DNA of 64,000 bases from assembly GCA_002083485.1 (NCBI GenBank), contig LWDK01000045.1:240-64239 (forward strand), read 5' to 3'. Source of the stretch: Proteobacteria bacterium SG_bin7. GTDB taxonomy: Bacteria > Bdellovibrionota > Bdellovibrionia > Bdellovibrionales > SG-bin7. The first letter of the stretch is position 1, and each line of letters begins with the position of its first letter. A model generated the notes under the pieces. The model made no database searches, was not told the DNA's origin, and saw only the letters and a program-made list of their open reading frames with translations. Made by a program: the position numbers and the translations under genes. Of this stretch, positions 7,702 through 42,198 are shown one piece after another.

Positions 7702-7806
7702 TATTTGTGGCGAAATTTTATATCGAGTCGAAAGCTCTTCTGAACCTTGAGACCCTGACGTTTCTTGGCAGGTTTTGCTTTTGAAAGATCGTATTTTGTT
7801 TTCATG
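7702..7806 (-). pseudogene. Truncated BrnA-like antitoxin remnant (34 codons)
   Basis: My translation is MKTKYDLSKAKPAKKRQGLKVQKSFRLDIKFRHK*. It matches a BrnA N-terminus up to the RLD motif and then stops. Its ATG overlaps the BrnT stop (ATGA). Confidence 0.4.
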
Positions 7807-25079: not shown

Positions 25080-25145
25080 TTATCTCATTAACTCTCACTT
25101 AAATTCTCTTGGCAACCATTAAATGCTTTGTTGATAATTAGAGGC

Positions 25146-27685: not shown

Positions 27686-28923
27686 ACCACATGAATGTTG
27701 TCGTCGTCGGCCATGTGGATCACGGTAAAAGCACCGTTATTGGTCGATTGCTTGCTGATACAGATTCACTTCCCGAGGGAAAGCTTGAAGACCTCAGGGA
27801 GTTTTGCAAAAGCAAAGCTCGTTCCTTCGAATATGCTTTTTTAACAGATGCATTAAGAGAAGAGCGAGCTCAGGGAATTACGATTGATACCTCACGACTA
27901 TTTTTTAAGACAACACAAAGAAACTACCAAATTATCGATGCACCAGGACACTTCGAGTTTTTAAAAAATATGATTAGTGGGGCCGCTCGTGCCGACGCTG
28001 CTTTTCTGACAATCGACGCAAAAGAAGGAATTACCGAGAACACCCTTCGTCATGCCTATATGCTGTCATTTCTGAGTATTCAGCAAATTGCAATACTCAT
28101 TAACAAAATGGATTTGGTCGATAACCGCGAAGATGTTTTTTTATCACTCGCAAGTGAAATTAAAAAATATCTGGCATCTCACTCAGTCTATCCAAAATAC
28201 TTTATTCCCATCTCCGCCTATTTGGGAGAAAACATCGCACGAGCGTCTAAACAAATCACTTGGTACGTAGGTCCAACGGTATTAGAGGCGCTCGATAGTT
28301 TTAAATTAGGTCTGTCAGTAGACAGCAAACCGTTTCGCCTAGCCGTTCAAGATCTCTATGACGACGTGATTGTTGGACGAGTTTCCAGTGGAACTCTGAA
28401 AGTTGGCGATGAAGTCGTTGCCTTTCCCGGCAACAAGAGGGCCAATATCAAATCCATTTTAGGAACCAAAAATTTTGTTGCCATTTCTGGTCAATCGATT
28501 GGAATAACGTTAAATGGACAAATAAAGGTAAAGCGCGGCGACATCCTTTGTTCCGCTCGTGAAACTCTTCCGCTGACCCTCCAAGAACTCTATGGAAACT
28601 TAATTTGGTTGGGCCAGAAACCATTAAATATTGGACAGACCTGCACTATCAAACTCGGAACCCAAAGATGTTTAGCAAAGTTAGAAGAAATTTTTCGCTG
28701 CCTGCATTCGCGAAATTTACATCGCTCTGAGGCCCATAAAAAACAAATTCAGCAAAACGAAGTCGCAACTTGTCGCTTTTCTCTGTCTTCGCAAATCTCA
28801 TTTGATGTAGGGTCTGAGTTTATAGATTCTAATAGGTTTGTTCTTGTCGACAATCACTGTATCGCCGGCGGTGGACTTATTATCGACCACTCGACTATGC
28901 CAGAAATAACAACGACTAATTGA
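27682..28923 (+). CDS. cysN: Sulfate adenylyltransferase subunit 1 (GTPase), with no fused APS-kinase domain
   Basis: G1 [12 protein letters not shown]3 DAPGH, G4 NKMD. Confidence 0.9.
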
Positions 28924-29177
28924 GACCCTCGTGAAGTATCACCTCCCGCCACAGAGAGACCAAGACGGGCATAGAGTGAAGACAATGATCTGTTGAAGTG
29001 AGCTATATTTTCTTCGCTAAATGTTTTTGGGAAAGTCAGTGAGTGCACGATCACACTGATCTTATACTGGCTCACCATAACCTCTAATTTTTTAGATAAT
29101 TTTTCGATAAAACCAGCTCCTTCACAAGCTACTGCAATTGTTTCTATTGACATACGCGTATTGCTCCTTGCAGACAA
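28924..29177 (-). pseudogene. Possible remnant of a PurM/ThiL-fold N-domain
   Basis: The 107-aa ORF (28854-29177) contains ...LTFPKTFSEENIAHFNRSLSSLYARLGLSVAGGDTSRG, resembling the ThiL/PurM N-domain ending in GGDT. It is squeezed between cysN and the lipid kinase and overlaps both. Confidence 0.25.
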
Positions 29178-30082
29178 GATAAGTGAAACTCTGTTCCTTC
29201 AACAACCTCACCATCGAATTCAAAGCAAATAGGTTTTTGGCATTTAACTATAATGGAATCTGTGGGGATACCTTTTCCCATTACATCTTGACCTAAAGAC
29301 ATTTTCACAAATGCCCTTAGAATATCAAGTTTGCTTTTTTTGGGCAAAACATAGTAGTGAAACATTCCATCAGACAGTTCAGGTTTTTCACACACATGAA
29401 AATCTCCCGCGAAATAAGGATGCTTGATGACGTTTAAATTCGTAATACAAGTCAACTCCCGAAAAACTCCATCAGTGCTAAAATATATTTCAGGTGCAGA
29501 AAAATTTTTTAGAGCTTTTAAAAAAGATAAAGCATCAGCCACTTTTATGCTTACTTTTTTGAAAAACCTAATCATCCTGTCATTACTAAAAATCTGATTC
29601 GCATGTGCAAGAACTCCAAATGAAGCATTGGCAATAAAGTAGCGTGTTTGAAGACTTCCCGACAAATCACGATATATCACACGCCCCAAATCATGACTTT
29701 CATTTTCACTGGAAAGTTTGACCGGACTGCCGCCAATAATCTGACAACCTGAAAAAGGTTTTAGGTAACTGTTGTTACTCCCTAAGCCGATATGACCAAA
29801 AGTAAATCCCGAAACATTTTCAAGTCCAACTCTGGCAATGACGTTGTTTATCAATTGGTTGAGTGTACCGTCCCCTCCCGCCGCAACAAGTTTGTCGCCA
29901 AATGCGATTGGAATTTCATTAAAATTCTCATGTTCATAGATCTCATAATGTCCCACTGACCAATTTTCTCTGAGTCTTTGCCAATATTTTATGGCACTAC
30001 CGGCCCTGGACTGGGAGTTAAGGATGATTTTCAACATACTGAAAAATACCCCTTGTAACTTCCGACATCGGACCAATAGCAT
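29144..30082 (-). CDS. DAGK/LCB5-fold lipid kinase (likely start at 30037, MLKIILNS)
   Basis: LVAAGGDGTLNQLIN and GHIGLGSNNSY match the diacylglycerol/sphingosine kinase catalytic domain. Confidence 0.8.
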   Translation of the reverse strand: MLLVRCRKLQGVFFSMLKIILNSQSRAGSAIKYWQRLRENWSVGHYEIYEHENFNEIPIAFGDKLVAAGGDGTLNQLINNVIARVGLENVSGFTFGHIGLGSNNSYLKPFSGCQIIGGSPVKLSSENESHDLGRVIYRDLSGSLQTRYFIANASFGVLAHANQIFSNDRMIRFFKKVSIKVADALSFLKALKNFSAPEIYFSTDGVFRELTCITNLNVIKHPYFAGDFHVCEKPELSDGMFHYYVLPKKSKLDILRAFVKMSLGQDVMGKGIPTDSIIVKCQKPICFEFDGEVVEGTEFHLSCLQGAIRVCQ

Positions 30083-30614
30083 TTACTGACGTAAGGTTGG
30101 AAACACCAACCAAAATACGTTGCAGATTCTTTCTAACTTTATCTTGGAAGTCTAACGTGTCCCCTAGCTCATAACCTGACCATATTTTTCGGCGAAGAGT
30201 CCCCTCGTCAACATTCATTTGCAAACTGAAAACCATATCTGGTTCTGGAAAGTAGTCTTTCGTTTCATCAATCCAAACCTTATCAGAAACTCCGTATGCG
30301 GCCTCCGTGGCCCAATATTTATAAATATAACCATTAAACAAAATAAAATCGTTTTTTTCGTCACGTCTATCCCATGCGGTCTTTAACGCCGAGATCAGAA
30401 AGTGAGAACGGGCGATGGGCTTCATTTGCAACAAGAGACCGTCGACAATTTTTTTTAGAGTTGTCGAATCAGTAATCTTTAGAAAATCCTCCATCGCCGA
30501 CCAAATTGAAAGAGTCTGTACAGAATAGGCACGAAGGGTAAGTTGCTGTCGCAAATTCTTAATCTGCGTATCTTTACCGCTGGCATCTGGTCCGGTGATG
30601 ACAATAAGTTTCAT
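30018..30614 (-). CDS. P-loop kinase (thymidylate-kinase-like fold)
   Basis: MKLIVITGPDASGKDTQ Walker A at the extreme N-terminus, in a size typical of NMP-kinase-like proteins. Confidence 0.6.
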   Translation of the reverse strand: MKLIVITGPDASGKDTQIKNLRQQLTLRAYSVQTLSIWSAMEDFLKITDSTTLKKIVDGLLLQMKPIARSHFLISALKTAWDRRDEKNDFILFNGYIYKYWATEAAYGVSDKVWIDETKDYFPEPDMVFSLQMNVDEGTLRRKIWSGYELGDTLDFQDKVRKNLQRILVGVSNLTSVNAIGPMSEVTRGIFQYVENHP

Positions 30615-31924
30615 GCGTTAAATTTTTTAAAAACCCTTTGTAGAATCTCTACAGCTGCATCGACGTCACCGGTAGAATGCGTCGCCATTACTGACATACG
30701 AAAGCGCTCATTTCCCACCGGAACCGCCGGCGGCTCAATTGGATTTACAAATAAATTTTGCTCATGAATTTCACGTGCGATCTCACGAAACTTTCCAATA
30801 ACCGGCGGGAATATCGGGACAATCGCACTTCCAGTATTGGTATGACGAATTCCCGCCAATTTAAGTCGTTCCCGCAAGTAAGATGCGTTTGCATGAACTT
30901 TTGCCACTCGCTCAGGTTGATTTCGAATAATATCCACACCCTTAAGTACTGCCGCACATACCATCGGCGGAAGAGACGCCGTAAAGAAATAGGAACGTGC
31001 AAAGAAGCGAATAAAGTTTATGGTCTTTGCATCGCCAGCCAGAAAACCACCAGTTACCGCAAAAGCCTTTGAAAAAGTCCCCATTGTCAGTTTCAGCTTA
31101 TCAACAATACCAAAGTGCTCAGCGGTACCTTTGCCACCGCCCAAAACACCTGTGCCGTGAGCATCATCAACGACAAGAAAACCACGATATTTTTCACAAA
31201 TATAAGAAATTTCTTTTAAGTTTGAAATCTCGCCACTCATCGAAAATACACCCTGTACGGAAACAAAAATGTCGCGACGAGAGTCACGGAAGCGAAATTT
31301 TTTAAATAAATCTTCAAGAGAATTTAAGTTTTGTTCTGAAAAGCGAAAAGCCTTTTTCCGGCCCAAGCGGATGCCATCGATCAATGAAGCATGAGAAGCC
31401 TCATCATATAAAAGAACAGCGTCGTCACTTAAAAGAGAATTTACCCATGCAAGATTAGCCTGATAACCCGTCGGCAGCACAACAGCGTCCTCTTTACCTT
31501 TAAATCGTGCAATCTCTTGTTCTAAAATTTTTTGCAAATCCCCAGATCCATTTAAGATCATAGGCCCAGCCATTCCTACACCATATTCCTGAATAGCCGC
31601 ACTTACAGCAGCTTTAATTTGCGGATCATTTGCAAATCCCAAGTAGTTGTTAGAACCAAACATCAACATTTCTTGATGACGATTCTTCAGATGATCAAAA
31701 ACAGATACGCGAGGACCCATGGCCGAAGACACTCGCCGATGATAAAGTAAGTATCCTTCCCTATGAAGTGGGCGAAAGACTTGTTCAAAAGTTTCAACAT
31801 TTTCTTCAATGTTAGGTCCCAAATAATCGCGCAAATTCATCAAGTGAACTTGATTGGGAAGCGCAACCGGGACGTCTGCGATATCAAAATTTTCACCAAT
31901 AAAGGATGCCTTTTCCAAATCCAT
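30611..31924 (-). CDS. Alpha-oxoamine synthase (serine palmitoyltransferase / KBL / AONS family)
   Basis: GSNNYLGF, VDDAHGTGVLG and MGTFSKAF (PLP Lys). Confidence 0.9.
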   Translation of the reverse strand: MDLEKASFIGENFDIADVPVALPNQVHLMNLRDYLGPNIEENVETFEQVFRPLHREGYLLYHRRVSSAMGPRVSVFDHLKNRHQEMLMFGSNNYLGFANDPQIKAAVSAAIQEYGVGMAGPMILNGSGDLQKILEQEIARFKGKEDAVVLPTGYQANLAWVNSLLSDDAVLLYDEASHASLIDGIRLGRKKAFRFSEQNLNSLEDLFKKFRFRDSRRDIFVSVQGVFSMSGEISNLKEISYICEKYRGFLVVDDAHGTGVLGGGKGTAEHFGIVDKLKLTMGTFSKAFAVTGGFLAGDAKTINFIRFFARSYFFTASLPPMVCAAVLKGVDIIRNQPERVAKVHANASYLRERLKLAGIRHTNTGSAIVPIFPPVIGKFREIAREIHEQNLFVNPIEPPAVPVGNERFRMSVMATHSTGDVDAAVEILQRVFKKFNA

Positions 31925-31939
31925 TTGTGGTCAATCCCC

Positions 31940-32965
31940 TCAATGTATTCTATTATTTGACGCAAACTTTAGCATAGCAAGCACGTAGTTTTTCGGATCA
32001 ACTCCCTCTTGTAACAAATTACGAATAGATGTTAGGTCAAGTGTCTGTAATTTTTCGGAAACCTCAAAACAAAGCGTGTTGTTTTCCGTTACTTTACCAA
32101 TTTTAATAAAATTTTTGCCACTTTCTTTTGCCGCTTGCGTAAACAAACGTTCGTTCTTCGAAGCTACGGTAAATAGAATTTCAAATTCACCATTTTGTGC
32201 GGCCATAAATAAAAAAGGATTTACTTGAGTAAGACGGGCCACTTCTATGGCAACAGGATGGTACAAATGCTCTGAATAGCTAACCTGGAAACCATTGCCA
32301 TTTAGCTGCTGCAAAAGATCTAAGCTAAAGAGAAGTCCATCGCTGGTATCGATGGCCGATGTCGCCCACTTCGCTATGAATTCCGCATCTTCAATGCGAG
32401 CTAGTGGTCGATAGTTGAGATCAAAGTTTTTTGCTTTTTCTCCCAGGGTAAGATTTGCAAAAGCAACGGCATTACCCCAACCAATCGGCCCCGTTATAAA
32501 AACTAAATCTCCCGGTTGCATCCCAATTCTCTGTACTTTTGGACTTTGAGCCGTTTCAGCAAAAGCGGTGCAAGAGGTAATCAGTTTTTTACTTTCAAAA
32601 AATGAAATGTCAAAAAATGGAATTAAGTATTTTTGCAGAGAAGCCTTTATTCCGGAAACGATTTTTAATTTTTCGAGTTCGGATTTATCGTCAGCCCACC
32701 CGATTGCGACGTGAACATTTTGCGTTTCAACCCCAATTGCTGCTAAATCCGAAACACTGGCAGTAACCGTCAACCAACCCAACGCCTCCAACGATTGAAT
32801 CAGTCCCATTTCAATTTCTTCAGACACAGTGTCAATCGTGACACAAGCATAACCACTCTGAGTCTTAATAATTTCTGCATCAGAGGCAAAGGGAAGATTG
32901 AGTTGACGACCAGTTCTTTGATAAGAATCTATCAAAGATTTAACAAAAGACATTTCCTGATTCAC
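31940..32965 (-). CDS. AIR-synthase-related (PurM/ThiL-fold) protein, paralog of 16105-17136
   Basis: SDAEIIKT..TIDTVSEEI, WLTVTASVSDLAAIG, QPGDLVFITGPIG, SAIDTSDGLLFSL. Confidence 0.8.
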   Translation of the reverse strand: MNQEMSFVKSLIDSYQRTGRQLNLPFASDAEIIKTQSGYACVTIDTVSEEIEMGLIQSLEALGWLTVTASVSDLAAIGVETQNVHVAIGWADDKSELEKLKIVSGIKASLQKYLIPFFDISFFESKKLITSCTAFAETAQSPKVQRIGMQPGDLVFITGPIGWGNAVAFANLTLGEKAKNFDLNYRPLARIEDAEFIAKWATSAIDTSDGLLFSLDLLQQLNGNGFQVSYSEHLYHPVAIEVARLTQVNPFLFMAAQNGEFEILFTVASKNERLFTQAAKESGKNFIKIGKVTENNTLCFEVSEKLQTLDLTSIRNLLQEGVDPKNYVLAMLKFASNNRIH

Positions 32966-35262
32966 AAAATTACCACGCTTCCGTCAATGCCGTTCACCGA
33001 AATTTCAGCGCCATCAGGAATAATATTTGTCGCGTCCTCGACATTTAAGACGCATGGGAGAGCATACTCCCGCGAAATCAACGCTGCATGAGAAAGTAAT
33101 CCACCTGTTTCGGTAACGACCGCCGAGGCTAGGCCAAAAAGCGGCGTCCACCCCGGATCGGTAAAAGGAACAACCATGATTTCACCTGGTTTCAACTTCT
33201 GACTTTCGGAAATATCTCTGATAACCCGGGCGCGGCCGCATCGCTCTCCCGCACTACAACCAATACCCGTTAGCACTTTCTTACCATCGACAGGCTTTGT
33301 CTTGGCAGGTCGCAAACTACTGTAGCGAGCCCCAATTTCATTTTGATTTTTGTAGTTCTCGAAACTCTTCGCATAGATTTTTATATCCTTAATAATATCT
33401 TTGGCTTTCTTCACATCAATCTTACCACTTAATAAATCAATAATGTCGTGATGACTTAAATAAAATACGTCAGTATAAAAATTAAACCGCGAACCTACTT
33501 CTAGGGCGAGCTTACGAATAAAATAATACATTCTTGTCGACCGATCTCGTAACTCCTCGCGTAACCAAAGAAAATTGCGCAAATTATTGAGCTTTCGTTC
33601 GATGCCACGGAAAGACCCAGGAATAAATCGGCGCGGTGACTTTTTGTGGGAAAATTTTAGTTTTTCAAATTCTTTCGAGAAATTGTCCTCCACCACAGGA
33701 GAAATCCTGTCGCCGGCCTTGACCAAAGCCTCTAATGTCTGCGTGATAAATTTCGAATCCTCACTCCATCTTGGCACTCGCAGATCAAGTTCACGCTCGC
33801 TGTGATAATAAAATTCTTCGAAAAAAAGATTCAGGCGCCGCTCCAATCCATCGGAATTTTGAGCGCGAATCTGGCCTGCAATCTGCTGCAGTTCCTTGAT
33901 TGGCTTAGTCGCACGCAAGTCACCTAAGCCTGAAATCAAATGAAGGTACTCTAGATTTGGGTCATATTTTTTATAGTACTTTAATTCATCAGCAAATTCG
34001 AGTTTGGCGTTCGACGCGTTGTAGATGGTTTGGAAATATTCTGACTCAACATATTTGTAATCAGTTAGAATAAGCTGGCTTGCCGCATTCAGTAACTCGT
34101 CGCTTCCCAGAGCTGACCAATCCAGTTTTTTATATATATTTTCTATTTTGTAAAAATTCTTTAATAGTTCGGTCGACCTTAGAGTTTGTTTCTTGTATTC
34201 ACGACGTAAGCGCCATAAAATCGGTATTGCTTTTAGAATTCCGAGAAATGAAATCGGCGTAACAACGCCATCCCCTTCATACGTTGCAGGAATTGACATA
34301 TCACGATCGAAATTCCCTTCATTATATCCTGGTAAGGTTTCTTGAGTTTCCTTTACTGCTTTTAAGTTCCAATAAGGACGACCGAAAAATACTTTGTACC
34401 AAGTCGTCGATTGCGCTTTCCATTTTTTAATAAGCCCAAGCTTTAAAAAATAATTTGGCAGGGAGGTAGCAAATATACTTTCGTAAAGCGACCAGATTAG
34501 AGGTGAAACAACTGCCGACGACACACCACCATCACGAAAATCAGCAGTTGTCCATTCGCCCAAGGATTTTGCAAATTGAACTCGCGTAATATCGCGCGAC
34601 TGCAGAATAAAAAGTTCGCCGTTTTTGAAAGCAAACTCTATATCTTGAGGTTTACCGTAGTGACTTTGTATAAGCCACACAGCCTCTCTAAGATTGATAA
34701 GCAGATTCTCAGGAAGACTCAAGTTTTCAGCGTCTTCAAAAGACTTTATCAACTGACCGCCAAAAGTATTTAAGCAATAACGAGTTGGGCGTATTTTTCC
34801 AGAAACAAGTTTTTCGCCACTCCCGCGACACATCTCAACTAGGATTTCACGATCGTCACCTGTGATCGGATTGACTCCAAACGCGACTCCCGCAAAATCA
34901 GGGGCAACGTACTCCTGCACAATGACAGCCATTTGAAGCTGATCAGAGACAACTTCATTTTTTAGACAATAACTTTTCACGCGGTCAGATCTGACCGCCT
35001 CGCGACACTGTTTTACGGCTTCTTCAACTCCCTTGGCCGTTACGTCGAGATAGGTTTCAAATAATCCTGCAAAAGACTGACTAACCCCATCTTCTTTTGA
35101 ACATGATGAACGAACTGCAAATTTTCCATGGCCAAATTCTTGTATTTGTTGACGGTAGTCATTAAACTCTTTGTCTGCAGGGATAACGAAAAAATCAGGC
35201 ACTCTTAGTCCCAAATTTTTCAATTCAATTAGTGTACGAGCCTTGTTACCGAAGTTCTGCAT
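32962..35262 (-). CDS. PEP-synthase/rifampicin-phosphotransferase-like enzyme: PPDK_N ATP-grasp, central domain and swivel phospho-His domain
   Basis: GNKARTLIELKNLGLRVPDFFVI, FAVRSSCSKEDGVSQSFAGLFETYL, AVIVQEYV, GSGEKLVSG. C-terminus: PFTDPGWTPLF..TETGGLLSHAALISREYALPCV. No PEP/pyruvate TIM-barrel domain. Confidence 0.85.
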   Translation of the reverse strand: MQNFGNKARTLIELKNLGLRVPDFFVIPADKEFNDYRQQIQEFGHGKFAVRSSCSKEDGVSQSFAGLFETYLDVTAKGVEEAVKQCREAVRSDRVKSYCLKNEVVSDQLQMAVIVQEYVAPDFAGVAFGVNPITGDDREILVEMCRGSGEKLVSGKIRPTRYCLNTFGGQLIKSFEDAENLSLPENLLINLREAVWLIQSHYGKPQDIEFAFKNGELFILQSRDITRVQFAKSLGEWTTADFRDGGVSSAVVSPLIWSLYESIFATSLPNYFLKLGLIKKWKAQSTTWYKVFFGRPYWNLKAVKETQETLPGYNEGNFDRDMSIPATYEGDGVVTPISFLGILKAIPILWRLRREYKKQTLRSTELLKNFYKIENIYKKLDWSALGSDELLNAASQLILTDYKYVESEYFQTIYNASNAKLEFADELKYYKKYDPNLEYLHLISGLGDLRATKPIKELQQIAGQIRAQNSDGLERRLNLFFEEFYYHSERELDLRVPRWSEDSKFITQTLEALVKAGDRISPVVEDNFSKEFEKLKFSHKKSPRRFIPGSFRGIERKLNNLRNFLWLREELRDRSTRMYYFIRKLALEVGSRFNFYTDVFYLSHHDIIDLLSGKIDVKKAKDIIKDIKIYAKSFENYKNQNEIGARYSSLRPAKTKPVDGKKVLTGIGCSAGERCGRARVIRDISESQKLKPGEIMVVPFTDPGWTPLFGLASAVVTETGGLLSHAALISREYALPCVLNVEDATNIIPDGAEISVNGIDGSVVIL

Positions 35263-36715
35263 AATTTTTTACTACCCCTTCATTGCCGTTAACTTCAATC
35301 TCATCGCCATCACGAATATGCATTAAAGCATCGTTCACATCACTTACCATTGGAATTCCAAATTCACGTGCTACTATAGCACCGTGACTTAAAGAGCCGC
35401 CAGTTTCACTGACAATTCCTCGACAAAAAGAGTAATACGCCGCATAGGTTGGAGTTGGACTTCTTATGACTAAAATGGAGTCCGCTTCCATGCGGCGAAT
35501 ATCGTTGATCGTCTCAACGATCAAGGCCCGACCTTTGGCAATCCCAGCGCTCGCGCCCTCACCGGTGAGATGGGCCTTTGTGGATTTATCTTCAACTGCA
35601 GAATATTTTCCATTAGCTTCTTCGCGAAGCTCGAATGGTGGGCTTATTGCACAAGCTGCACGATATTCGCTTCGCCGCTTCTTGATTGTTTGCAAAGAAA
35701 TATGTCCACTCTGAATTTCTTCAATCGTTAAAAAGTAAATATCATTTGATGCCAACCCGAATTTCTTTTCGAGATTCCTAAAAATTTTTTTTAGCTCGGG
35801 ATACTGAAGAGAGCTAAAAGCCCTAAGCTCCTCGTCAATTAAAAGCAATTCTTCAAAATACAAAATAAGCTGCACAAAATTTTTATTGGACCGGCAAGAC
35901 TTTAGGATTTTTTCAGTTTCTAAAATACGTTCTTGTTGGCGAAGTTTCAAATCTTGGTGAATACGTTCAAATCTACTAAAATCTCGTGGTAGCTTACTTA
36001 ATTCGCGAAGAGTAGGAGCATAGATGTCCCAATTATCCGTTAAGTGGCCATAGCGATTCATAAGTTCTTCGTAACTTAAACGCTCGTCAGCAAAATCGAG
36101 CGCCATTTGTGAGGAAAAGTTACGCGCATGGCCCGAACTTAATTTTTTTAAAACTTCAGACGGCGATTCTATTCCAAGGTCTTTCAGTCCTTGTTTTAAA
36201 AGACGCCCCACAAAATTTTTAAAAAAATAGACGGTAAAATCTTGGCTAAAAAACTGGGCACCATCCAATCGATGCTTTTCAAGATCGCCGTTGTAGTTCG
36301 CCGACATCTTAGCTATTAGACCAGACTTGGTAGCCTCCCAGCTCTTTATTAAATGAAAAAGACTCTTCTCAAACAAGATAGAAAAAAAACGCCGTTCGAA
36401 ACGATAGCGAAATGAAAATCGGTCTATACATATGAGTTCTCTAAACACACAAAAAAGTGCGACCAATACTAGCTTCACCAAAGCAACAAAGTGAAACTCC
36501 CAATTTTTTTTATTAGAAAAGAATCCTTTGGCAGTATAAATATACCCATCAATACGACGCACAACCCGATTTCTATTGATATTTTTTAAGCCAAACGCAT
36601 TCTCAACACCCTTTAAGGCGGCCTCTGTTGGTGTTGCCAAAATAGACCAACCCAGGGGACTTATAGCCTGCGGAAATCTTTCTTTACTCTCTTGTCGTGT
36701 CCATATTTTATTCAT
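35246..36715 (-). CDS. PEP-utilizing swivel-His domain protein lacking the ATP-grasp domain
   Basis: C-terminus: GASAGIAKGRALIV..SETGGSLSHGAIVAREFGIPMV. The N-terminus resembles the central domain of the upstream paralog. Confidence 0.75.
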   Translation of the reverse strand: MNKIWTRQESKERFPQAISPLGWSILATPTEAALKGVENAFGLKNINRNRVVRRIDGYIYTAKGFFSNKKNWEFHFVALVKLVLVALFCVFRELICIDRFSFRYRFERRFFSILFEKSLFHLIKSWEATKSGLIAKMSANYNGDLEKHRLDGAQFFSQDFTVYFFKNFVGRLLKQGLKDLGIESPSEVLKKLSSGHARNFSSQMALDFADERLSYEELMNRYGHLTDNWDIYAPTLRELSKLPRDFSRFERIHQDLKLRQQERILETEKILKSCRSNKNFVQLILYFEELLLIDEELRAFSSLQYPELKKIFRNLEKKFGLASNDIYFLTIEEIQSGHISLQTIKKRRSEYRAACAISPPFELREEANGKYSAVEDKSTKAHLTGEGASAGIAKGRALIVETINDIRRMEADSILVIRSPTPTYAAYYSFCRGIVSETGGSLSHGAIVAREFGIPMVSDVNDALMHIRDGDEIEVNGNEGVVKNYAELR

Positions 36716-38079
36716 TAATCAAGCACCGCGACCTTTCTAAAAACTTCTAGACTCAGACCGTATTCGGCCGCAACTTCAGAAATCGAAAGTTGTTTTCTTA
36801 AAAGCATTGCATTGACAATACTTTTAAGAAGTTCAATATGATGACGAACGGTGACTAAAATAAAAATTTTCAGCCCCAGACTTTGAATCAGCTCACGACT
36901 AATTTGAATAGGCGCCTTAAGTCGAACATGTATTTGTTTACAAAGGCTTTCTTCAGGAAGCTGATGCGAAAGCCTCCAGGCGTCTGTGAGAGGTGCAAAT
37001 AGAAAGTTCTTCCACATCTTTGATAAAAAATAGGCCTTCTCGTGGGGACGCTGGCAGAGTGAGAACATCGCAAAAGATTTTTCGATTTTGGCAACCTGTG
37101 TGGTCCGCATAAATAAAATTTTCTCTGGCGGAGCGATGCGATTAGAAACTTCTTTTTTAACTCGTAAAGAAACAAAAGGTTCAGTTTGTGCTAAAATGTC
37201 TCTGCAAAACTCATTAACAAAAAGAGAGTTTACAATGGAGGCCGCCCTGAAAACCCTATCATGGGAGCCTGAAGCCTTGACTAAAGCTAAAAAAGACTTC
37301 GAATTCAAACTATACTCATGATAAAAAATAAAGTTAAAAAGATCACCGATTTCACGCAAACCAAGCTTATACGGAGAAAGATGCAGGCAAAGGTGATTCA
37401 AGAATTGATCCGTACCAAGCCGATAGAGATTTAGTCCAAAAAAATTAAAAGCTTCTTTAGACTTCCAGAGATCCTCGGCACTTACTTTAGCATCCGCTAA
37501 TGGTGGCACAATATTCCAATGCGTTCCAAAAAAACACTTTAGGTCTTTAGAAAAAAAAGCTGGCCAATGATGCGAGAACTTTTCTTGCCTTCGCCAGCTA
37601 GAACCAAGGGCGGCTGCACATTTCAGACCATGTTTCTCATAGATAAGTGCAACTTTGTCTAAGTCACTTTTTTTTATCAAAATATCGATATCATTCATTT
37701 GTTTGTAGCCAATATCCCCGTAAATGGGAAGTGCAATGGCATTTCCCTTTAAAACTATGATTTCCACACCGTTTTCGACACAATCAGCAAGGACCGGCAA
37801 CGCCACCTTTAAGCGTTCTTCATTGGCAAATTTATTTTTCCAATAACCTCTTTTTAATGACTCCAAAAATTCTTTTGGGACCGAGTTTTCTAAGTTAAAT
37901 TTTTTTATTTGGAGATATATTTGACCTTCAATCCCATTGTGGGTAACAAGGCCCATCCAATTTTTCCAAGTTTCAATGTCATCCAGCCCCGGAAAAATAA
38001 TGTCCGTCGGCTCAGAACTAATCCTATAAAGATTCCAAAGCGCTGAAAGCCTCATACTTTCACCAAACCGTCGTACCAT
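36715..38079 (-). CDS. Uncharacterised nucleotidyltransferase-family protein (NTP_transf_5-like)
   Basis: VLKGNAIALPIYGDIGYKQMNDIDILIKKSDLDKVALIYEKHG matches the family core as I recall it. Confidence 0.6.
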   Translation of the reverse strand: MVRRFGESMRLSALWNLYRISSEPTDIIFPGLDDIETWKNWMGLVTHNGIEGQIYLQIKKFNLENSVPKEFLESLKRGYWKNKFANEERLKVALPVLADCVENGVEIIVLKGNAIALPIYGDIGYKQMNDIDILIKKSDLDKVALIYEKHGLKCAAALGSSWRRQEKFSHHWPAFFSKDLKCFFGTHWNIVPPLADAKVSAEDLWKSKEAFNFFGLNLYRLGTDQFLNHLCLHLSPYKLGLREIGDLFNFIFYHEYSLNSKSFLALVKASGSHDRVFRAASIVNSLFVNEFCRDILAQTEPFVSLRVKKEVSNRIAPPEKILFMRTTQVAKIEKSFAMFSLCQRPHEKAYFLSKMWKNFLFAPLTDAWRLSHQLPEESLCKQIHVRLKAPIQISRELIQSLGLKIFILVTVRHHIELLKSIVNAMLLRKQLSISEVAAEYGLSLEVFRKVAVLD

Positions 38080-38891
38080 TCAAGCCTGTTAACAATAGGA
38101 TTGCCCAGAATACTAGACAGGTAGTGGGCTTCGCGAAAGAGCCTTTCGATTTCAAAATCCTTAATGTATCCCGCACCCCCGAAAACCTGTAGGCAATCAG
38201 AAGCAAAAGCCCCTATCTGGCTTTGAAGAAAAAATAGCGATGATATTTGACTGCCACTCAATAATTCTTCCGCAACATACATTTTCATTTTAAGGTCCGC
38301 AAGAATGCGTTTAAGCTCTGACCACTGAGAAATTTTTCGCCCCCCTTGAATTCGGGACCCCGCATAGCCTTCTGCTAAACGCAACATTCTCCGCATATGC
38401 CCTACTAAAACTCCACACATCATTCCTAAGTGGGAGTTCGATTTTTTTTCAATAATTTCCCCATTCCGCTCGTCAAAAAGAATATCCATCAAATTGACGT
38501 TACGGAATGCGAGTCGCTGTGGACTTGGAATCTTTTCAACTCCATTTCTTAAATCTATCAAGATATAGGTGTTTTTATTTTTAAAGGGAACCAGAGCAAA
38601 TTTGGCTTGATCTGTTAACCAAACAGAACCACCAAAACTTCCAGGACAAAAAGCGAGGCAATCACCCTCTTTTAAACATTTTTTTGACTTTTCAACACCT
38701 AAAATTTCGACAGCGGCGCAATGGCAGTATATCGACATTGCTAAACCAGCGTCGATTTCAGCAATGTCGGGTAAAAGACTCTTGATAAGGTTTTTCGTAG
38801 TACTATCTGGAGCCCCAAAGAACCCTAGTTCAGATAAATGAACCCAGCGATTTTTATCTTTTGGAATATGCCGAAGAGATTCCAGAATCAT
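38052..38891 (-). CDS. Acyl-CoA-dehydrogenase-like protein, short and probably non-catalytic
   Basis: The C-terminal helical domain QVFGGAGYIKDFEIERLFREAHYLSSILG resembles ACAD, but the YEGT catalytic-base motif is replaced. Confidence 0.6.
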   Translation of the reverse strand: MILESLRHIPKDKNRWVHLSELGFFGAPDSTTKNLIKSLLPDIAEIDAGLAMSIYCHCAAVEILGVEKSKKCLKEGDCLAFCPGSFGGSVWLTDQAKFALVPFKNKNTYILIDLRNGVEKIPSPQRLAFRNVNLMDILFDERNGEIIEKKSNSHLGMMCGVLVGHMRRMLRLAEGYAGSRIQGGRKISQWSELKRILADLKMKMYVAEELLSGSQISSLFFLQSQIGAFASDCLQVFGGAGYIKDFEIERLFREAHYLSSILGNPIVNRLEWYDGLVKV

Positions 38892-40297
38892 AGACTCTCC
38901 GCAAAAGGCGCAAAATGACTTGGCGCCAACACATTTTTAAAAACATTTATACGATTGAGCTGATTGGTTCCCTCATAGATTTGCAGGAGTTTAATATCGC
39001 GGAGAACTTTTTCTATTGCATTTTCTTGGCGTAAACCAGCTTCGCCCATCATGGACAAAGCAATCTGCGCATTCTTTACCGCCAGATCACTGGCTGTGTA
39101 TTTTGCCGTCGAAGCTAAAGCTGAAATTTCTTTATCATGACCTCGTTGACGCAGACGCCGTTCGCGCAAAGATCGACGAAGACCAGCAGAAAGCAGAAGA
39201 AACTTCGGCATCATCCGCATTAGAAAATTGATTCCTGTACGATAGACGTCGCGATTTGGCCCATACAATGCAGTAGCAAATCCCGACTCCCAAGTAATTA
39301 ACTTTGCAATTTGGTAATTTCTATACATGTCTGCCAGCTGAATCTGTGCCCACTCGTTTTCAAGAAGATTCTCACTCATCAAAAATTTACGACATAAATC
39401 CATTGATTGACGAGCAGACCCTGCCGCTAATGCCCCCACGCCGGCGCGAGATATTGATAAAATATCATCACCTAACAGCTGACAGTAAATTTCATACTGG
39501 TGCTGCGAACGAAATTGTTGTGGTGAAATTGCTACATTATCGCTAGGAACAACAACATCTTCGTAATAGACTTCGCTAGCAGGACAAAGATGCTGTCCCA
39601 TTTTTTCTTCGATTCTGCCAACGGTCACACCTTTTGCGTTTCCTGGAACGGCCATAATAACGCATGATTTATGTGGTCGAGCGATGTCTTCGTAGCCGAC
39701 AACAATTTGCCAGCGTGCCCATTTGGAATTTGAGATAAAAATTTTGCTACCGCTAAGGAGGTAACCACCATCTTGCAAAACCACTCGAGTTTTAACTTGT
39801 GCTTTGGCCATAAGATCGACATCTTCTAAATCCGTTCCGGCATTAGGCTCAGTAATAGCGACGGCCAATACACACGGTGACTTTTCTTTTTCTCCTCGCT
39901 TTATATCAAGACATAAACGATGCAGTAGTGAAAAATTTTGCGTCATTGAAACAAGGCCCAAAGCCACATAATGAGCGCCAATAATGTTTGCGGTACCAAT
40001 ACAGGTGGCGCCTACTTCTTCGTTAAATGCAATCATTGAAACTGGACTTAGGCCGCCGCCACCAAAAGCCTTAGGCATCCACAGTGACAAAAGTCCCCAT
40101 TCATTTATTTTAGCAAGCACTGTACGGGCAAGAAAGTCTGAGTCAGATTCAATCTTCGCATCTAATTCCAGATAAACGGGATTCACCACTTCTTGCACCC
40201 ATCTCTTGGCCAGAGCGATAGCTTCGGCAATTTCTTTCTGTACGCCCTTTGTAAGTTTCTGCCCAGCACTAAAACTGTAAGGCAACCCGTGTGTCAT
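38888..40297 (-). CDS. Acyl-CoA (or acyl-ACP) dehydrogenase-family flavoprotein
   Basis: AITEPNAGTDL, GSKIFISNS and LLQIYEGTNQL (catalytic Glu). Confidence 0.85.
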   Translation of the reverse strand: MTHGLPYSFSAGQKLTKGVQKEIAEAIALAKRWVQEVVNPVYLELDAKIESDSDFLARTVLAKINEWGLLSLWMPKAFGGGGLSPVSMIAFNEEVGATCIGTANIIGAHYVALGLVSMTQNFSLLHRLCLDIKRGEKEKSPCVLAVAITEPNAGTDLEDVDLMAKAQVKTRVVLQDGGYLLSGSKIFISNSKWARWQIVVGYEDIARPHKSCVIMAVPGNAKGVTVGRIEEKMGQHLCPASEVYYEDVVVPSDNVAISPQQFRSQHQYEIYCQLLGDDILSISRAGVGALAAGSARQSMDLCRKFLMSENLLENEWAQIQLADMYRNYQIAKLITWESGFATALYGPNRDVYRTGINFLMRMMPKFLLLSAGLRRSLRERRLRQRGHDKEISALASTAKYTASDLAVKNAQIALSMMGEAGLRQENAIEKVLRDIKLLQIYEGTNQLNRINVFKNVLAPSHFAPFAESL

Positions 40298-41061
40298 ATA
40301 AGTTCACTGACCTGTTCATAAGCTTTTCGTGCGGCAACCCCGCTTTGCGCCCACAATTGTCCCGCGTCGATTCCAAGCGTTAACATATTCGTACGAAGCT
40401 GCTTATTATAAATTGCGAACTTTGAGGTATTCACATCAGTACGCACAATACTCAGAAAGATTCGCGTGAGTACTAAGTCCCAACGGTCAGTAGTCCTACT
40501 TTTTCTCCACAAAGAAAACAAAATTTTCACCGCGGCTCGATGACGAAACTCATCCTTCTCAATTGCAGTAACTAATTCCGCTAAAGAATTCAAACCATCG
40601 CGTTTTGCCGCGGCCTTAATCTGAACATATAACTTTTCTGAAAAAAGTTCATAAAAATAGAGCCCTGCGAGAAACGGAATTGGTCTTTTTAAAATAAGCC
40701 TTTCAATATTTCCAAACAAAAATTCGTAAATCACTTTATCAGTTAAAGTTTTTTTAGTCTTAACATGTTTAAATATTTTTAAATTGAATTCCTTTAGCGC
40801 ATCCGCATGGCGATGTTCATCAGCAATATGAACATTCATGTAAGCACTTGCTACCGAAGAAAACGAAAATGCGCCAACCATAGGACGTAACACTTTCTCT
40901 TCCATAGATTCGGCCGTGGCAATCGATGACAATATTCCAGACCATGCCATGCGCTTTGCTGCAGTCAATTTCGCGATATCATCAATAAAAATTTTAGGAA
41001 ATTTGGCCTGCGCTTTTACAGCTTCCGGCTGAATTCGCGACAAGTGCTCTTCAATGAGCAT
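40294..41061 (-). CDS. Ferritin-like di-iron carboxylate protein (two EXXH motifs)
   Basis: HIADEHRHADAL and IEKDEFRHRAAV lie about 90 aa apart. A strong GGGAGG Shine-Dalgarno sits 5 nt before the ATG. Confidence 0.55.
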   Translation of the reverse strand: MLIEEHLSRIQPEAVKAQAKFPKIFIDDIAKLTAAKRMAWSGILSSIATAESMEEKVLRPMVGAFSFSSVASAYMNVHIADEHRHADALKEFNLKIFKHVKTKKTLTDKVIYEFLFGNIERLILKRPIPFLAGLYFYELFSEKLYVQIKAAAKRDGLNSLAELVTAIEKDEFRHRAAVKILFSLWRKSRTTDRWDLVLTRIFLSIVRTDVNTSKFAIYNKQLRTNMLTLGIDAGQLWAQSGVAARKAYEQVSELI

Positions 41062-41136
41062 CGGGGCCTCCCTTTTTTCTATATTAATTTAATCAATTAA
41101 GTTGTCTAATTGTCCAGGCTCAAATAGCCTACTTTT

Positions 41137-42198
41137 ATGTCGCAACACGTACATTACGCAAATTGGTGGTCGAAGCTCCTTTTCAAAAAGAGTTTTGAAA
41201 ATCAGTTTTATATTCCGTTACCTGCGACCCGCATAGAAATGATCATAATGCACGCAATTGAACGCTTTAAATTTGATTTGGATCATTCTCAAACTAAAAT
41301 CGATCGACCGATATTTATTGTCGGGCTGCCGCGCTCAGGCACAACGCTTCTCTACAACCTTTTGTGTGCCCATGAAAATTCCGCCTATGTCACGAATTCG
41401 ATAAATGCTTTTCCAACAGCAATCTGTACTATTGAATGGTTGAGAAAAAAATTAAATTTAGACATTCGTGGCGAGAGGTTCTTGGCAGATTCCGTTGAGA
41501 CCGATTTTGGCAGCCCATCTGAACCGATTATGTTCTGGGGAAAGTGGTTTGGACGTGACGTGGAAAGTCTTTATTGGGAAGAAAAGCGCATCAAAGATAT
41601 TTCCGCCGAGAAGATTGATGAAATTTTTAGCGATATCCGTAAAATTCTTTTTTCATTCGCTCCCAACGGAAAACGCTTCATCTGTAAATACCCAGTTCTA
41701 CAGACTGAACTAAGGCTGATCCAAGATATCTTTCCGGACGCCCATTTTATTCATATTGTTCGCGATGCGCGTACCACTGCAAATTCCATGGTTAAACTTC
41801 ATGAAATTTCGAATCAGCAAATTCAGAAAATCAAGCATCCGAAGATCAAATACATCGTCCCCTACCCACGCGTTAAGAATCTCCAGAAGTATATTAATGA
41901 ATTCGGTGCTACAGACGTGCGTTGTACTGCCCATGTTTGGCAAGACGCCATTGAAACCGTCCATGAATGCGCGAAGGATCTAAATAATTTTTTCGAAATC
42001 AAATATGAAATACTTTTAGCTTCACCAAAACTTTCCATGCTTAATGTTTTTAATTTCTGCGGAATGAATTGGCCTGAAAATAAGAAGTTTGATTATGAGT
42101 TCGCAAAAATTGGAAAAATTCGGCATAAAAATAATTATGGTAATTTCGATGTTATTCAAGAAATTACAAAAGAGACCTTAACCCAACTGGGCTATTAA
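41137..42198 (+). CDS. PAPS-dependent sulfotransferase-family protein
   Basis: 5'-PSB loop IFIVGLPRSGTTLLYNLL and 3'-PB-like IHIVRDARTTANSM. Confidence 0.8.
   Translation: MSQHVHYANWWSKLLFKKSFENQFYIPLPATRIEMIIMHAIERFKFDLDHSQTKIDRPIFIVGLPRSGTTLLYNLLCAHENSAYVTNSINAFPTAICTIEWLRKKLNLDIRGERFLADSVETDFGSPSEPIMFWGKWFGRDVESLYWEEKRIKDISAEKIDEIFSDIRKILFSFAPNGKRFICKYPVLQTELRLIQDIFPDAHFIHIVRDARTTANSMVKLHEISNQQIQKIKHPKIKYIVPYPRVKNLQKYINEFGATDVRCTAHVWQDAIETVHECAKDLNNFFEIKYEILLASPKLSMLNVFNFCGMNWPENKKFDYEFAKIGKIRHKNNYGNFDVIQEITKETLTQLGY

Follow-up and report, generated by a model that had tools for sequence, protein, structure and literature searches.

A Conserved Operon of a Bacteriovoracaceae-like Bacterium with a Possible Role in the Synthesis of an Anionic Long-Chain-Base Lipid

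What might be made by a group of genes in which an enzyme resembling serine palmitoyltransferase (SPT) is packed among half a dozen enzymes that transfer phosphate or nucleotide groups? The question is raised by DNA of Proteobacteria bacterium SG_bin7, from the Bdellovibrionota (assembly GCA_002083485.1, contig LWDK01000045.1, positions 240 to 64,239 of the forward strand), a stretch of 64,000 nucleotides that I will call the window and whose own numbering is used throughout. The original prediction took ten closely packed genes (g01 to g10 below) to be a single assembly line, in which a sphingoid-type backbone is desaturated or oxidised and then repeatedly phosphorylated or nucleotidylated. 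I argue from gene order and sequence comparison that these ten genes, together with an eleventh (g11), are one conserved operon of a Bacteriovoracaceae-like bacterium of the Bdellovibrionota, and I put at roughly one in two the probability that the locus makes a long-chain-base lipid for export, one with several anionic groups: multiple phosphates and, in this lineage, sulfate.

The study of sphingolipids in bacteria, and of the anionic head groups that they carry, is a young field in which few head-group pathways are known. The anionic sphingolipids of Caulobacter can replace lipopolysaccharide and are a target of polymyxin. The locus considered here points to a head-group pathway of a different kind, rich in phosphotransfer.

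Layout and conservation of the operon

The genes of the operon and the spacer that precedes it are as follows, with functions as predicted from family, motif and fold.

40294-41061, minus strand: g01, ferritin-like di-metal lipid oxidase, resembling R2-like ligand-binding oxidases (R2lox), aldehyde-deformylating oxygenase (ADO) and desaturases; first gene of the operon
38888-40297, minus strand: g02, acyl-CoA dehydrogenase (ACAD), catalytic subunit
38052-38891, minus strand: g03, ACAD-like protein reduced to the C-terminal domain and lacking the catalytic Glu; probable non-catalytic partner of g02
36715-38079, minus strand: g04, nucleotidyltransferase of pol-beta fold, PF14907 (NTP_transf_5); signature gene of the core shared across phyla
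35246-36715, minus strand: g05, relative of Rph and phosphoenolpyruvate (PEP) synthase without ATP-grasp domain, with central substrate and swivel-His domains
32962-35262, minus strand: g06, Rph-type phosphotransferase with ATP-grasp, central and swivel-His domains
31940-32965, minus strand: g07, ThiL-like ATP-dependent kinase of the PurM superfamily
30611-31924, minus strand: g08, SPT-like alpha-oxoamine synthase (AONS)
30018-30614, minus strand: g09, P-loop kinase, a distant relative of dTMP kinase (Tmk) and not a Tmk orthologue
29144-30082, minus strand: g10, lipid kinase of the DAGK_cat/YegS type (superfamily of LCB5 and sphingosine kinase); probable start at 30037
28854-29153, minus strand: g11, small conserved protein of 99 aa; last gene of the operon
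41062-41136, no strand: divergent intergenic region of 75 bp between g01 and a sulfotransferase gene

The listing of open reading frames (ORFs) reproduces the ten minus-strand ORFs exactly at the coordinates first given, and inspection of their starts shows how tightly they are packed. ATGA overlaps of 4 nt are found at 40294/40297, 38888/38891 and 30611/30614, a TAATG overlap of 1 nt at 36715, and longer overlaps of 17 nt (35246-35262) and 28 nt (38052-38079); a gap of 15 nt lies at 31925-31939. A further overlap of 4 nt had been claimed at 32962/32965. It holds if g07 starts at a GTG, and gives way to a gap of 9 nt if the ATG at 32953, preferred by the public gene call, is taken instead. The junction between g09 and g10, absent from the earlier description, is an overlap of 65 nt with the first ATG of g10 or of 20 nt with the ATG at 30037, the start used in the public call of 297 aa. 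As had also been claimed, g01 alone is preceded by a strong Shine-Dalgarno sequence, GGGAGG, 5 nt upstream of its ATG; what precedes the other genes is at most a partial purine-rich motif, such as GGAGAG before g03.

The extent of ten genes stands as far as it goes, one gene having been overlooked. The ORF of g11 overlaps g10 by 10 nt and has a weak AIRS match (E 0.0025), resembling the end of the AIRS N-domain with its GGDT motif. A gene of 94 aa occupies the same position in loci L002-L006 (related loci are cited by number where needed), with tblastn identity of 45-47%. The tail of g11 also overlaps by 70 nt (28854-28923) the tail of cysN on the plus strand; transcription of the two units must therefore either collide or share a bidirectional terminator region.

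At the other end of the operon, the spacer at 41062-41136 would serve as a promoter region shared with the divergent sulfotransferase gene, and the same divergent layout recurs with a spacer of about 80 bp in L002-L006. A sigma-70-like match lies at 41108-41081, in a window of about 41% GC; matches of this kind turn up there no more often than chance would give.

The window also matches a metagenome contig of 64 kb (ENA ERZ2854929, NODE_615). The closest relatives of the operon proteins come from metagenome-assembled genomes (MAGs) of Bacteriovoracaceae and Bacteriovorax. Close relatives of g04 are few, about 22 in 5.8 billion clustered proteins, and the contigs that carry them with shared gene order include two of 1.97 Mb and 0.96 Mb. 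The order in these relatives is FA_hydroxylase, the divergent sulfotransferase, di-iron protein, ACAD, ACAD-like protein, PF14907 enzyme, PEP-utilizers protein, PPDK_N/Rph protein, AIRS protein, Aminotran_1_2 protein, Tmk-like kinase, DAGK kinase, the 94-aa gene, a PLDc_2 protein and a gene of about 230 aa. Both the order and the tight junctions (overlaps, or gaps of at most 10 nt) are identical in at least seven Bacteriovoracaceae species genomes, even though the proteins are only about 40% identical to those of the window, within a range of 30-66% (tblastn), from which it follows that order and packing have survived a long divergence. The operon of the relatives continues into the PLDc_2 gene and the gene that follows it; in the window the counterparts of these two (20798-22147 and 17880-18557) are displaced from the operon by 7-11 kb.

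For the claim that the genes form one functional unit, stronger evidence is not obtainable from sequence alone. Synteny across species thus bears out that part of the single assembly line; the order of its steps and the nature of its product are not established by it.

Enzymes of the predicted backbone and head group

All of the domain calls first made for the operon proteins agree with Pfam and NCBIfam. The NCBIfam matches fall without exception below equivalog cut-offs, and I therefore regard the operon proteins as divergent members of their families.

The SPT-like label of g08 is well placed, since the protein is closest to a solved serine palmitoyltransferase. It matches Aminotran_1_2 in Pfam (159 bits) and, amongst proteins in PDB, the SPT of Sphingobacterium multivorum (276 bits) ahead of KBL (213), cysteate acyltransferase (CFAT, 199) and ALAS (197). 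The alignment with the S. multivorum enzyme extends over 386 residues, with about 38% identity over trimmed columns, and brings HASLIDG, VDDAHG, GTFSKA and PAVPxxxxRFR of g08 into register with the catalytic His, Asp-x-x-His, pyridoxal phosphate-Lys and Arg motifs of SPT. Relative to the Bacteroidetes-type enzyme, g08 has an N-terminal extension of about 48 aa. In a rough neighbour-joining tree with few references, S. multivorum SPT is the sister of a single clade that holds the cluster-linked homologues of g08 from every phylum. The NCBIfam scores are 355 against a cut-off of 640 for SerpalmtaseCFB (Bacteroidetes-type), 287 against 500 for BetaP and 209 against 670 for AlphaP; the scores with bioF and KBL are little lower than those with the SPT models. 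The predicted reaction of g08 is a condensation of an acyl group with an amino acid, serine or one like it.

Three enzymes encoded at the head of the operon would act on the acyl chain. The first of them, g01, was described as a di-iron protein, and its ligands, model and fold matches agree that it is a ferritin-like di-metal oxidase. It has only weak AurF and rubrerythrin matches, under the Pfam gathering scores, and an exhaustive HMMER search of 1.84 billion representatives gives its family just 80 members, for which reasons I treat it as a separate small family. Across 56 members nine residues never vary (E51, E54, D81, E82, H85, E138, D170, E171 and H174), and the metal-ligand pattern E...ExxH...E...ExxH is made up of E51, E82-H85, E138 and E171-H174. 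The AlphaFold2 model, with a mean confidence (pLDDT) of 95.5, is all-helical, and its best fold matches are R2lox (TM 0.65-0.70), followed by ADO and acyl-ACP desaturases; fatty chains are bound by all three kinds of enzyme.

The proposed pair of an ACAD and an ACAD-like protein is upheld as a catalytic subunit with a probable non-catalytic partner. g02 has the three ACAD domains of Pfam and a YEGT motif with the catalytic Glu, its NCBIfam matches all lying below equivalog cut-offs; g03 has an Acyl-CoA_dh_1 match at residues 229-263 only, along with a weak IpdE2-type match, and ILGN replaces YEGT. The two remain side by side in the Bacteriovoracaceae loci and fit the heteromeric ACAD pattern of FadE26/27 and IpdE1/E2.

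The remaining six of the ten genes had been taken for nucleotide-dependent group-transfer enzymes. They do belong to ATP- or NTP-dependent families and all retain their catalytic motifs, which in the case of every transferase are conserved across phyla. Taking the enzyme families as the sole guide, one may reasonably suppose that a backbone would be repeatedly phosphorylated or nucleotidylated.

g04 matches NTP_transf_5 (115 bits) and has a helical C-terminal half of about 170 aa. Residues G112, D130, D132, H170 and H171 are conserved in 33 loci along with others, many of them His, Lys and Glu, and the G...DxD motif is kept. The AlphaFold2 model has a pLDDT of 89.6. The nearest folds to the N-terminal half are LnuA, ANT(2'')-Ia, MenT1 and TM1012, and more weakly FKRP, which transfers ribitol-phosphate from CDP-ribitol; the helical half has no structural match, and g04 has no sequence relative in PDB.

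The next two proteins, g05 and g06, are related to Rph. In g05 a PEP-utilizers domain spans residues 410-480, the NCBIfam matches cover the C-terminal two thirds of Rph and PEP-synthase models, and the swivel residue His444 (in LSHG) is conserved in 22 loci. g06 combines PPDK_N with PEP-utilizers (and Rph_4th in precomputed matches) and has the swivel motif LLSHAA. Its best solved relative is the rifampin phosphotransferase of Listeria (5fbs/5hv1), and its NCBIfam matches to PigC, RedH and Rph, of 213-252 bits, are all below cut-off (213 against 999 for Rph, 237 against 1300 for PigC). The architecture of ATP-grasp, substrate and swivel-His domains is thus complete in g06, g05 having the last two only. 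That g05 lacks an ATP-grasp domain and lies directly upstream of g06 suggests one loader serving two substrate modules.

Elsewhere, in three Bdellovibrio-type loci (L015, L018 and L020), the Rph-like gene appears to be without an ATP-grasp domain, tblastn finding only its swivel region, and a ThiL-like AIRS gene follows directly after it (at about 11.3-13.9 kb in L015). A PurM-fold ATPase as the loader of a swivel His would be without precedent.

The last three transferases are putative kinases. g07 has AIRS and AIRS_C domains with conserved Asp ligands; in PDB only ThiL structures match it (47 bits), and its score with the thiL model is 130 bits, the cut-off being 184. The resemblance of g09 to Tmk is more distant: Thymidylate_kin 23.8 bits, below cut-off; DTMP_kinase 29.6 against 83; Tmk structures in PDB with E about 0.02. 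Its P-loop, GxDxxGKxT, is kept, with G8, D10, G13, K14 and T16 conserved in 24 sequences, and NGY apparently replaces the DR(Y) motif of Tmk, by my own reading of the unaligned sequence. g10, with DAGK_cat and YegS_C domains, has GGDG (69-72) and ExDGE (288-292), both of them kept in 25 sequences.

As thiL and DTMP_kinase are the best model names, g07 and g09 might be thought ordinary thiamine-phosphate and dTMP kinases, set by chance amongst otherwise unrelated metabolic genes. Their scores are far under the equivalog cut-offs, however, the DR(Y) motif is apparently absent from g09, the genes accompany the cluster in eight phyla or more, and the island around the operon holds two ThiL-like copies. 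Housekeeping ThiL and Tmk are rejected on scores and motifs, and chance juxtaposition is scarcely credible. A part in anti-phage defence was also considered and rejected, PADLOC giving only a marginal match of g09 to a candidate model (18.9 bits).

The core shared across phyla and the surrounding island

A scan with the PF14907 profile of one genome per GTDB species gave 143 relatives, of which the best 80 were examined. Neighbours were counted by tblastn of the window proteins within 10 kb of the PF14907 relative; single-linkage clustering of ORFs had merged the PPDK, Tmk and DAGK families by way of fused and shadow ORFs in high-GC loci, and for this reason the per-query counts were relied on. 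An Rph-like gene is found near the PF14907 relative in 74 of the 80 loci, an SPT-like gene in 65, Tmk-like and DAGK-like genes in 63 each, and a gene for a haloacid-dehalogenase-type (HAD) phosphatase in 61. A core of eight genes emerges: SPT-like, PF14907, Rph-like, HAD, one or two Tmk-like, DAGK-like, and a short-chain dehydrogenase/reductase (SDR). About half of the operon is common to all phyla, namely the SPT-like, PF14907, Rph-like, Tmk-like and DAGK-like genes.

Among the 80, carriers include 37 Nocardia species representatives, besides Mycobacteroides chelonae and further mycobacteria. They also include four Legionella (one of them L. drancourtii LLAP12), MAGs of Bdellovibrio type, and members of the Planctomycetota, Acidobacteriota and Spirochaetota. 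The L. drancourtii core consists of eight consecutive genes, in the order SPT-like, PF14907, Rph-like, HAD, Tmk-like, DAGK, second Tmk-like and SDR. The Nocardia version is a compact eight-gene core with a second Rph-like gene, a gene of fatty-acyl-AMP-ligase type and a P450, and a MacB-type ABC exporter ends both of the actinobacterial clusters examined, those of M. chelonae (L036, by Pfam) and Nocardia (L043, by family clustering). Loci of Bdellovibrio type have, as additions, FA_hydroxylase and P450 genes, a reductase of the epimerase family and two ThiL-like genes; Bacteriovoracaceae versions carry an added FA_hydroxylase or P450. The ACAD pair and the sulfotransferase are essentially limited to the Bacteriovoracaceae version, and homologues of the di-iron protein occur outside it in three loci (L014, L039 and L045). 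The di-iron gene, the ACAD pair and the sulfation arm are mainly additions of the Bacteriovoracaceae lineage.

The actinobacterial versions, with their acyl-AMP ligase, P450, two Rph-like genes and MacB-type exporter, resemble a natural-product cluster. The product might accordingly be a diffusible specialised metabolite (an antibiotic, a signal or a siderophore-like amphiphile) on a 2-amino-3-hydroxy-alkyl scaffold, the kinases, PF14907 enzyme and HAD protein performing tailoring, self-resistance or pro-drug steps and the transporters efflux. It fits such an idea that the folds nearest to PF14907 are the antibiotic-modifying LnuA and ANT(2''), that the nearest solved relative of g06 is an antibiotic kinase, and that AONS-family enzymes also produce signals such as CAI-1 and LAI-1. 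I nonetheless think it rather unlikely, since the core spans much of a genus, as the Nocardia representatives attest, since it is chromosomal in predators and in intracellular bacteria with small secondary metabolism, and since it is coupled in this lineage to a phosphatidyl-type transferase, a lipid-type pump and a supply of activated sulfate.

These last genes belong to an island of about 30 kb, from 12.7 to 42.2 kb of the window, within which the operon sits. Its other genes are as follows, again with predicted functions.

41137-42198, plus strand: sulfotransferase of the type using 3'-phosphoadenosine 5'-phosphosulfate (PAPS), Sulfotransfer_3 and Sulfotransfer_1; divergent from g01 across 75 bp
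26095-28923, plus strand: cysC (DUF2061-APS kinase, APS being adenosine 5'-phosphosulfate), cysD and cysN, with APS_kinase, PAPS_reduct and GTP_EFTU; PAPS synthesis, convergent with the operon
25128-26105, plus strand: NAD(P)-dependent reductase like HpnA, 3-beta-HSD and OleD, presumed to act on lipids; Epimerase, 3Beta_HSD, NAD_binding_4
23898-25079, minus strand: major facilitator superfamily (MFS) transporter, MFS_1; ten hydrophobic segments
22137-23813, minus strand: secreted protein of 558 aa, without Pfam match, with N-terminal hydrophobic segment
20798-22147, plus strand: phosphatidyl-type transferase of the phospholipase D (PLD) superfamily, cardiolipin-synthase-like; PLDc_2 in two stretches, weak matches to cardiolipin synthase
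18554-20773, minus strand: lipid exporter of the resistance-nodulation-division (RND) type, HpnN/HAE3/MMPL-like; ten hydrophobic segments, MMPL match weak, HpnN and HAE3 44-45 bits
17880-18557, minus strand: protein of 225 aa, without Pfam match; thirteenth gene of the operon elsewhere
17087-17887, minus strand: classical SDR, candidate 3-keto long-chain-base reductase; adh_short 156 bits
16105-17136, plus strand: second ThiL-like AIRS protein; AIRS 52.8 bits, thiL 112 bits against a cut-off of 184
15410-16117, plus strand: HAD-family phosphatase, orthologue of the core HAD; Hydrolase, HAD_2
12690-15335, minus strand: fusion of 881 aa joining a class-III aminotransferase to an NAD(P)-binding domain, PigE-like, accessory; Aminotran_3, Shikimate_DH-like

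The original prediction overlooked the sulfation arm, the HAD and SDR genes, the second ThiL-like gene, the PLD gene and the RND exporter, as well as the spread of the system amongst other bacteria. The sulfotransferase is, with g08, the most conserved of the set, occupying the same position in Bacteriovoracaceae loci with 62-64% identity. It contains the stretches PRSGTT and RDARxxxNS, which I take to be PAPS-binding motifs. A homologue adjoins the core in a planctomycetote (L033), and cysD and cysN follow the operon in L009 as they do here. Beyond the sulfotransferase, convergent with it and overlapping it by 4 nt, a gene at 42195-43289 (minus strand) encodes a protein of 364 aa with an N-terminal hydrophobic segment and no family match; it was found in none of the related loci.

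Two reductases lie in the island. That at 25128-26105 scores 244 bits with HpnA, 174 with SdmB and 119 with OleD, all below cut-off, and a related epimerase-family gene is found inside Bdellovibrio-type clusters. The best NCBIfam match of the SDR is mycolate reductase, below cut-off, and the SDRs with which the Legionella and Nocardia clusters end are members of its family. The 3-ketosphinganine reductase of Bacteroides is likewise a classical SDR (PMC9278070). The HAD protein is up to 48% identical to that inside the Legionella cluster, and its motifs (DxDGT, T135/N136, K171 and D201) are conserved in 21 loci. A second AIRS gene occurs in Bdellovibrio-type clusters as well.

Several other island genes travel with the operon. 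In other Bacteriovoracaceae loci the PLD gene is the twelfth gene of the operon, followed directly in L002-L013 by the gene of the 225-aa protein (35-37% identity); the genes of the 558-aa protein (38-40% identity) and of the RND pump also adjoin the operon there. Homologues of the 881-aa fusion lie beside the core in L014, L023, L027 and L053, and the MFS transporter shows no conservation with the cluster in other loci. Conversely, the FA_hydroxylase, P450, acyl-AMP ligase and second Tmk-like gene of other loci have no homologue in the window. NCBIfam matches resembling PigA, PigC, PigE and PigH brought to mind a prodigiosin-like pathway, which was rejected: all are far below cut-off (PigA 77 against 500, PigC 237 against 1300, PigE 289 against 850), and the window has no gene for a peptidyl carrier protein, adenylation domain or ketosynthase such as would supply the carrier-protein and pyrrole functions.

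Farther from the operon, the window holds a group II intron RNA (Rfam RF02005, 82 bits) at 4041-4269 (plus strand), followed by its reverse-transcriptase ORF (RVT_1) at 4389-5822 (plus strand); together they are a mobile element, close to where the contig begins on the left. A toxin-antitoxin module may be formed by a BrnT_toxin-like gene of 74 aa at about 7802-8026 (minus strand) and the small HTH/CopG-like genes near it, at about 6.2-6.9 kb. A pair of DUF4423 paralogues, each of about 270 aa, is encoded at 10150-10965 (plus strand), adjoining a small HTH gene, and at 60885-61697 (minus strand), and an rve-family integrase or transposase gene lies at 58812-60089 (plus strand).

The genes of operon and island may be arranged into a pathway of six steps. 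In the first, the ACAD pair g02/g03 would tailor a fatty acyl thioester by alpha,beta-dehydrogenation and the R2lox-like g01 would oxidise the chain. In the second, g08 would join serine, or an amino acid like it, to the acyl group and so give a 3-keto base, whose ketone, in the third, would be reduced by the SDR, by the HpnA-like reductase or by both. The fourth step would build the head group. The DAGK/LCB5-type g10 would phosphorylate a hydroxyl, like CpgB in Caulobacter; the ThiL-like proteins (g07 and that at 16105-17136) and the Tmk-like g09 would extend the phosphate, since these families phosphorylate an existing phosphate monoester; the Rph-type pair g05 and g06 would phosphorylate further hydroxyl or amine positions through phospho-His (ATP to AMP and Pi); g04 would either O-nucleotidylylate the lipid, in the manner of ANT and Lnu, or transfer a phospho-alcohol, in that of FKRP; and the HAD phosphatase would trim a phosphate. 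In the fifth step the PLD-type transferase and the PAPS-dependent sulfotransferase, fed by cysC, cysD and cysN, would finish the head group, and in the sixth the HpnN/MMPL-like RND pump, with two conserved secreted partners, would move the product outward. The first three steps are the best supported. The order of the head-group steps is one that I infer, and I hold any particular order with much less confidence than the overall picture of a lipid.

Observation covers which genes are present, how their order and motifs are conserved, what folds they are assigned, and that they are linked to genes for PAPS synthesis and exporters. The lipid nature of the product is suggested by the likeness of g08 to SPT, by SDRs located with the core and by a fold of g01 like those of R2lox, ADO and desaturases, as well as by the acyl-AMP-ligase-type gene and P450 of Nocardia and the FA_hydroxylase or P450 of Bdellovibrio-type and Bacteriovoracaceae loci. 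Export is suggested by the HpnN/MMPL-like pump in the window and by the MacB-type exporters of the actinobacterial clusters, and sulfation by the degree to which the sulfotransferase is conserved and by the adjacent cysC, cysD and cysN here and cysD and cysN in L009.

Several points weigh against this picture. The product and the gene functions are predictions throughout. g08 lies below every curated SPT cut-off, which leaves its amino-acid substrate unfixed. No ceramide synthase (N-acyltransferase of the bCerS type) or dedicated acyl carrier protein (ACP) was found in the window or the core loci, so that the lipid may be a free or otherwise N-modified base. Scans for promoter and terminator consensus sequences gave counts equal to the shuffled expectation and say nothing of transcripts. 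Bacteriovorax stolpii is not among the best 80 genomes; that species is a cultured producer of sphingophosphonolipid. In 15 of the 80 loci there is no SPT-like gene within 10 kb (some of these loci being cut by contig ends), and the module of phosphotransfer genes and PF14907 may therefore serve other acceptors too. Finally, a PEP-mutase cluster family (GCF 540) is flanked by a thymidylate kinase and PF14907 (PMC8942020).

The last two points suggest another reading, in which the phosphotransfer genes build a nucleotide-activated donor that is later transferred to a lipid or other surface acceptor: an Rph/PPDK-type kinase would first phosphorylate a small molecule, a nucleotidyltransferase would turn this into an NDP-derivative, and a P-loop kinase would phosphorylate it further. 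The model here is the O-methyl-phosphoramidate (MeOPN) pathway of Campylobacter, Cj1415-Cj1418. The combination of PF14907, Rph-like and Tmk-like genes is invariant, also where no SPT-like gene is near (as in L073 of the Flavobacteriales and L033 of the Planctomycetota), and FKRP is among the structural neighbours of g04. However, g04 has a pol-beta fold, whereas the known cytidylyltransferases of phospho-sugars and phospho-amides use a fold of the GlmU/IspD type; there is no gene of glutamine-amidohydrolase type; and among the neighbours of g04 only the Rph-like gene is commoner than the SPT-like. A donor pathway is on balance distinctly improbable.

Returning to the long-chain-base lipid, I consider it a tentative possibility that the core found across phyla is an unrecognised pathway to a new class of lipids, with a sphingoid base and a poly-phosphorylated or nucleotide-capped phosphate head group, sulfated in the Bacteriovoracaceae. 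Nocardia, Mycobacteroides (M. chelonae) and Legionella, genera that are cultured and in part pathogenic, carry the core, and this, with the eight genes of L. drancourtii, makes the hypothesis directly testable. If it is true, Actinobacteria such as Nocardia and Mycobacteroides, and some Legionella, would have sphingoid-type lipids; no report of such lipids in Actinobacteria is known to me. PF14907 and the small orphan family of di-metal oxidases would gain their first functions, and Rph-like enzymes, routinely mis-annotated as 'phosphoenolpyruvate synthase', a lipid substrate. Predatory bacteria would have a candidate sulfated envelope lipid.

Comparison with known systems

The nearest described system is the synthesis of ceramide phosphoglycerates (CPG and CPG2) by Caulobacter crescentus (spt and cpgA-D). 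It has in common with the locus an SPT-family enzyme and an LCB5/DAGK-type kinase encoded together, and it too uses a nucleotidyltransferase in head-group synthesis and yields an anionic surface sphingolipid (PMC9393093, PMC10331486, PMC12275187, PMC11324152). The original prediction cited this pathway as a precedent with a different enzyme set, and the difference is confirmed: CpgA (PgsA-like), CpgD (an IMPCT-like cytidylyltransferase) and CpgC (without known domain) have no counterpart here (PMC9393093, PMC12275187), the Pfam domains of PgsA-type CDP-alcohol phosphatidyltransferase and IMPCT-like cytidylyltransferase being in no gene of the window. The LCB5-type CpgB starts the anionic head group in Caulobacter (PMC9393093); g10, with its DAGK_cat domain, GGDG and DGE, is likened to it by family only. 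Unlike Caulobacter, the present cluster has Rph-type His-swivel, ThiL-like, Tmk-like, PF14907, HAD and PLD-type proteins and a sulfotransferase, and no genes for bCerS, ACP or acyl-ACP synthetase were found in it. As to the remainder of a ceramide pathway, the SDR and HpnA-like reductase are present, four island proteins are without family assignment, and neither the island nor the clusters of Legionella and Nocardia gave a match to any acyltransferase family. With no ceramide synthase found, a sphingolipid in the sense of a ceramide-based one is unproven.

The locus could still be a version of a known sphingoid pathway, either that of Caulobacter or the capnine/sulfonolipid pathway of Bacteroidetes, inasmuch as SPT-like enzyme and LCB5/DAGK-type kinase parallel spt and cpgB (PMC9393093) and sulfur chemistry is linked to the locus. 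I judge this very improbable. No PgsA-type or NTP_transferase-type gene lies in the island, and homology with the Caulobacter pathway was rejected because only Spt and the kinase are common to both. Capnine/sulfonolipid synthesis was rejected in turn: g08 is weaker to cysteate acyltransferase than to SPT (199 against 276 bits), no cysteate synthase was seen, and sulfur enters by way of PAPS and a sulfotransferase (O- or N-sulfation) and not as cysteate. A sphingophosphonolipid of the B. stolpii type was also set aside, there being no PEP mutase in the window and no B. stolpii among the best genomes.

With the initial steps in Bacteroidetes (the SPT of Sphingobacterium and Bacteroides, and the SDR-type 3-ketosphinganine reductase BT_0972) there is a likeness in that the catalytic motifs of g08 are alike and an SDR in the cluster parallels the sequence of SPT followed by KDSR (PMC9278070). 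Unlike those SPTs, g08 belongs to a separate clade, scores under the curated cut-offs and has its N-terminal extension.

The Rph family transfers a phosphate from ATP to a substrate oxygen through phospho-His, releasing AMP and Pi. With Rph and PigC, g06 shares the architecture and conserved His, at scores far below the cut-offs, and g05 differs in being without ATP-grasp. Clusters for phosphorylated lasso peptides have a kinase and a nucleotidyltransferase-fold enzyme that act, or are proposed to act, one after the other on a single hydroxyl (PMC10368454). A like pairing is found in a phosphonate cluster family, and it is in the paper on this family alone that PF14907 is named (PMC8942020). 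In neither case is the acceptor a lipid: it is a peptide in the one and a phosphonate in the other. As for Legionella, a single paper reports ceramides in L. gormanii, with no SPT assigned (PMC9146996), and other species of the genus carry the core.

A parallel to the finishing steps is offered by mycobacterial sulfolipid-1, which has a sulfotransferase and an MmpL exporter and is built on an acylated trehalose backbone from polyketide synthases. In both cases a PAPS-dependent sulfotransferase and an RND/MMPL-like pump would be tied to an exported anionic lipid. The backbone in the present case would come from an alpha-oxoamine synthase, and the pump is weakly MMPL/HpnN-like.

Full-text literature searches found no paper describing this cluster. 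The cluster is real, conserved and, as far as can be told, hitherto undescribed; it would be a pathway to the head group of a bacterial sphingoid lipid, put together from enzymes in a combination without precedent.

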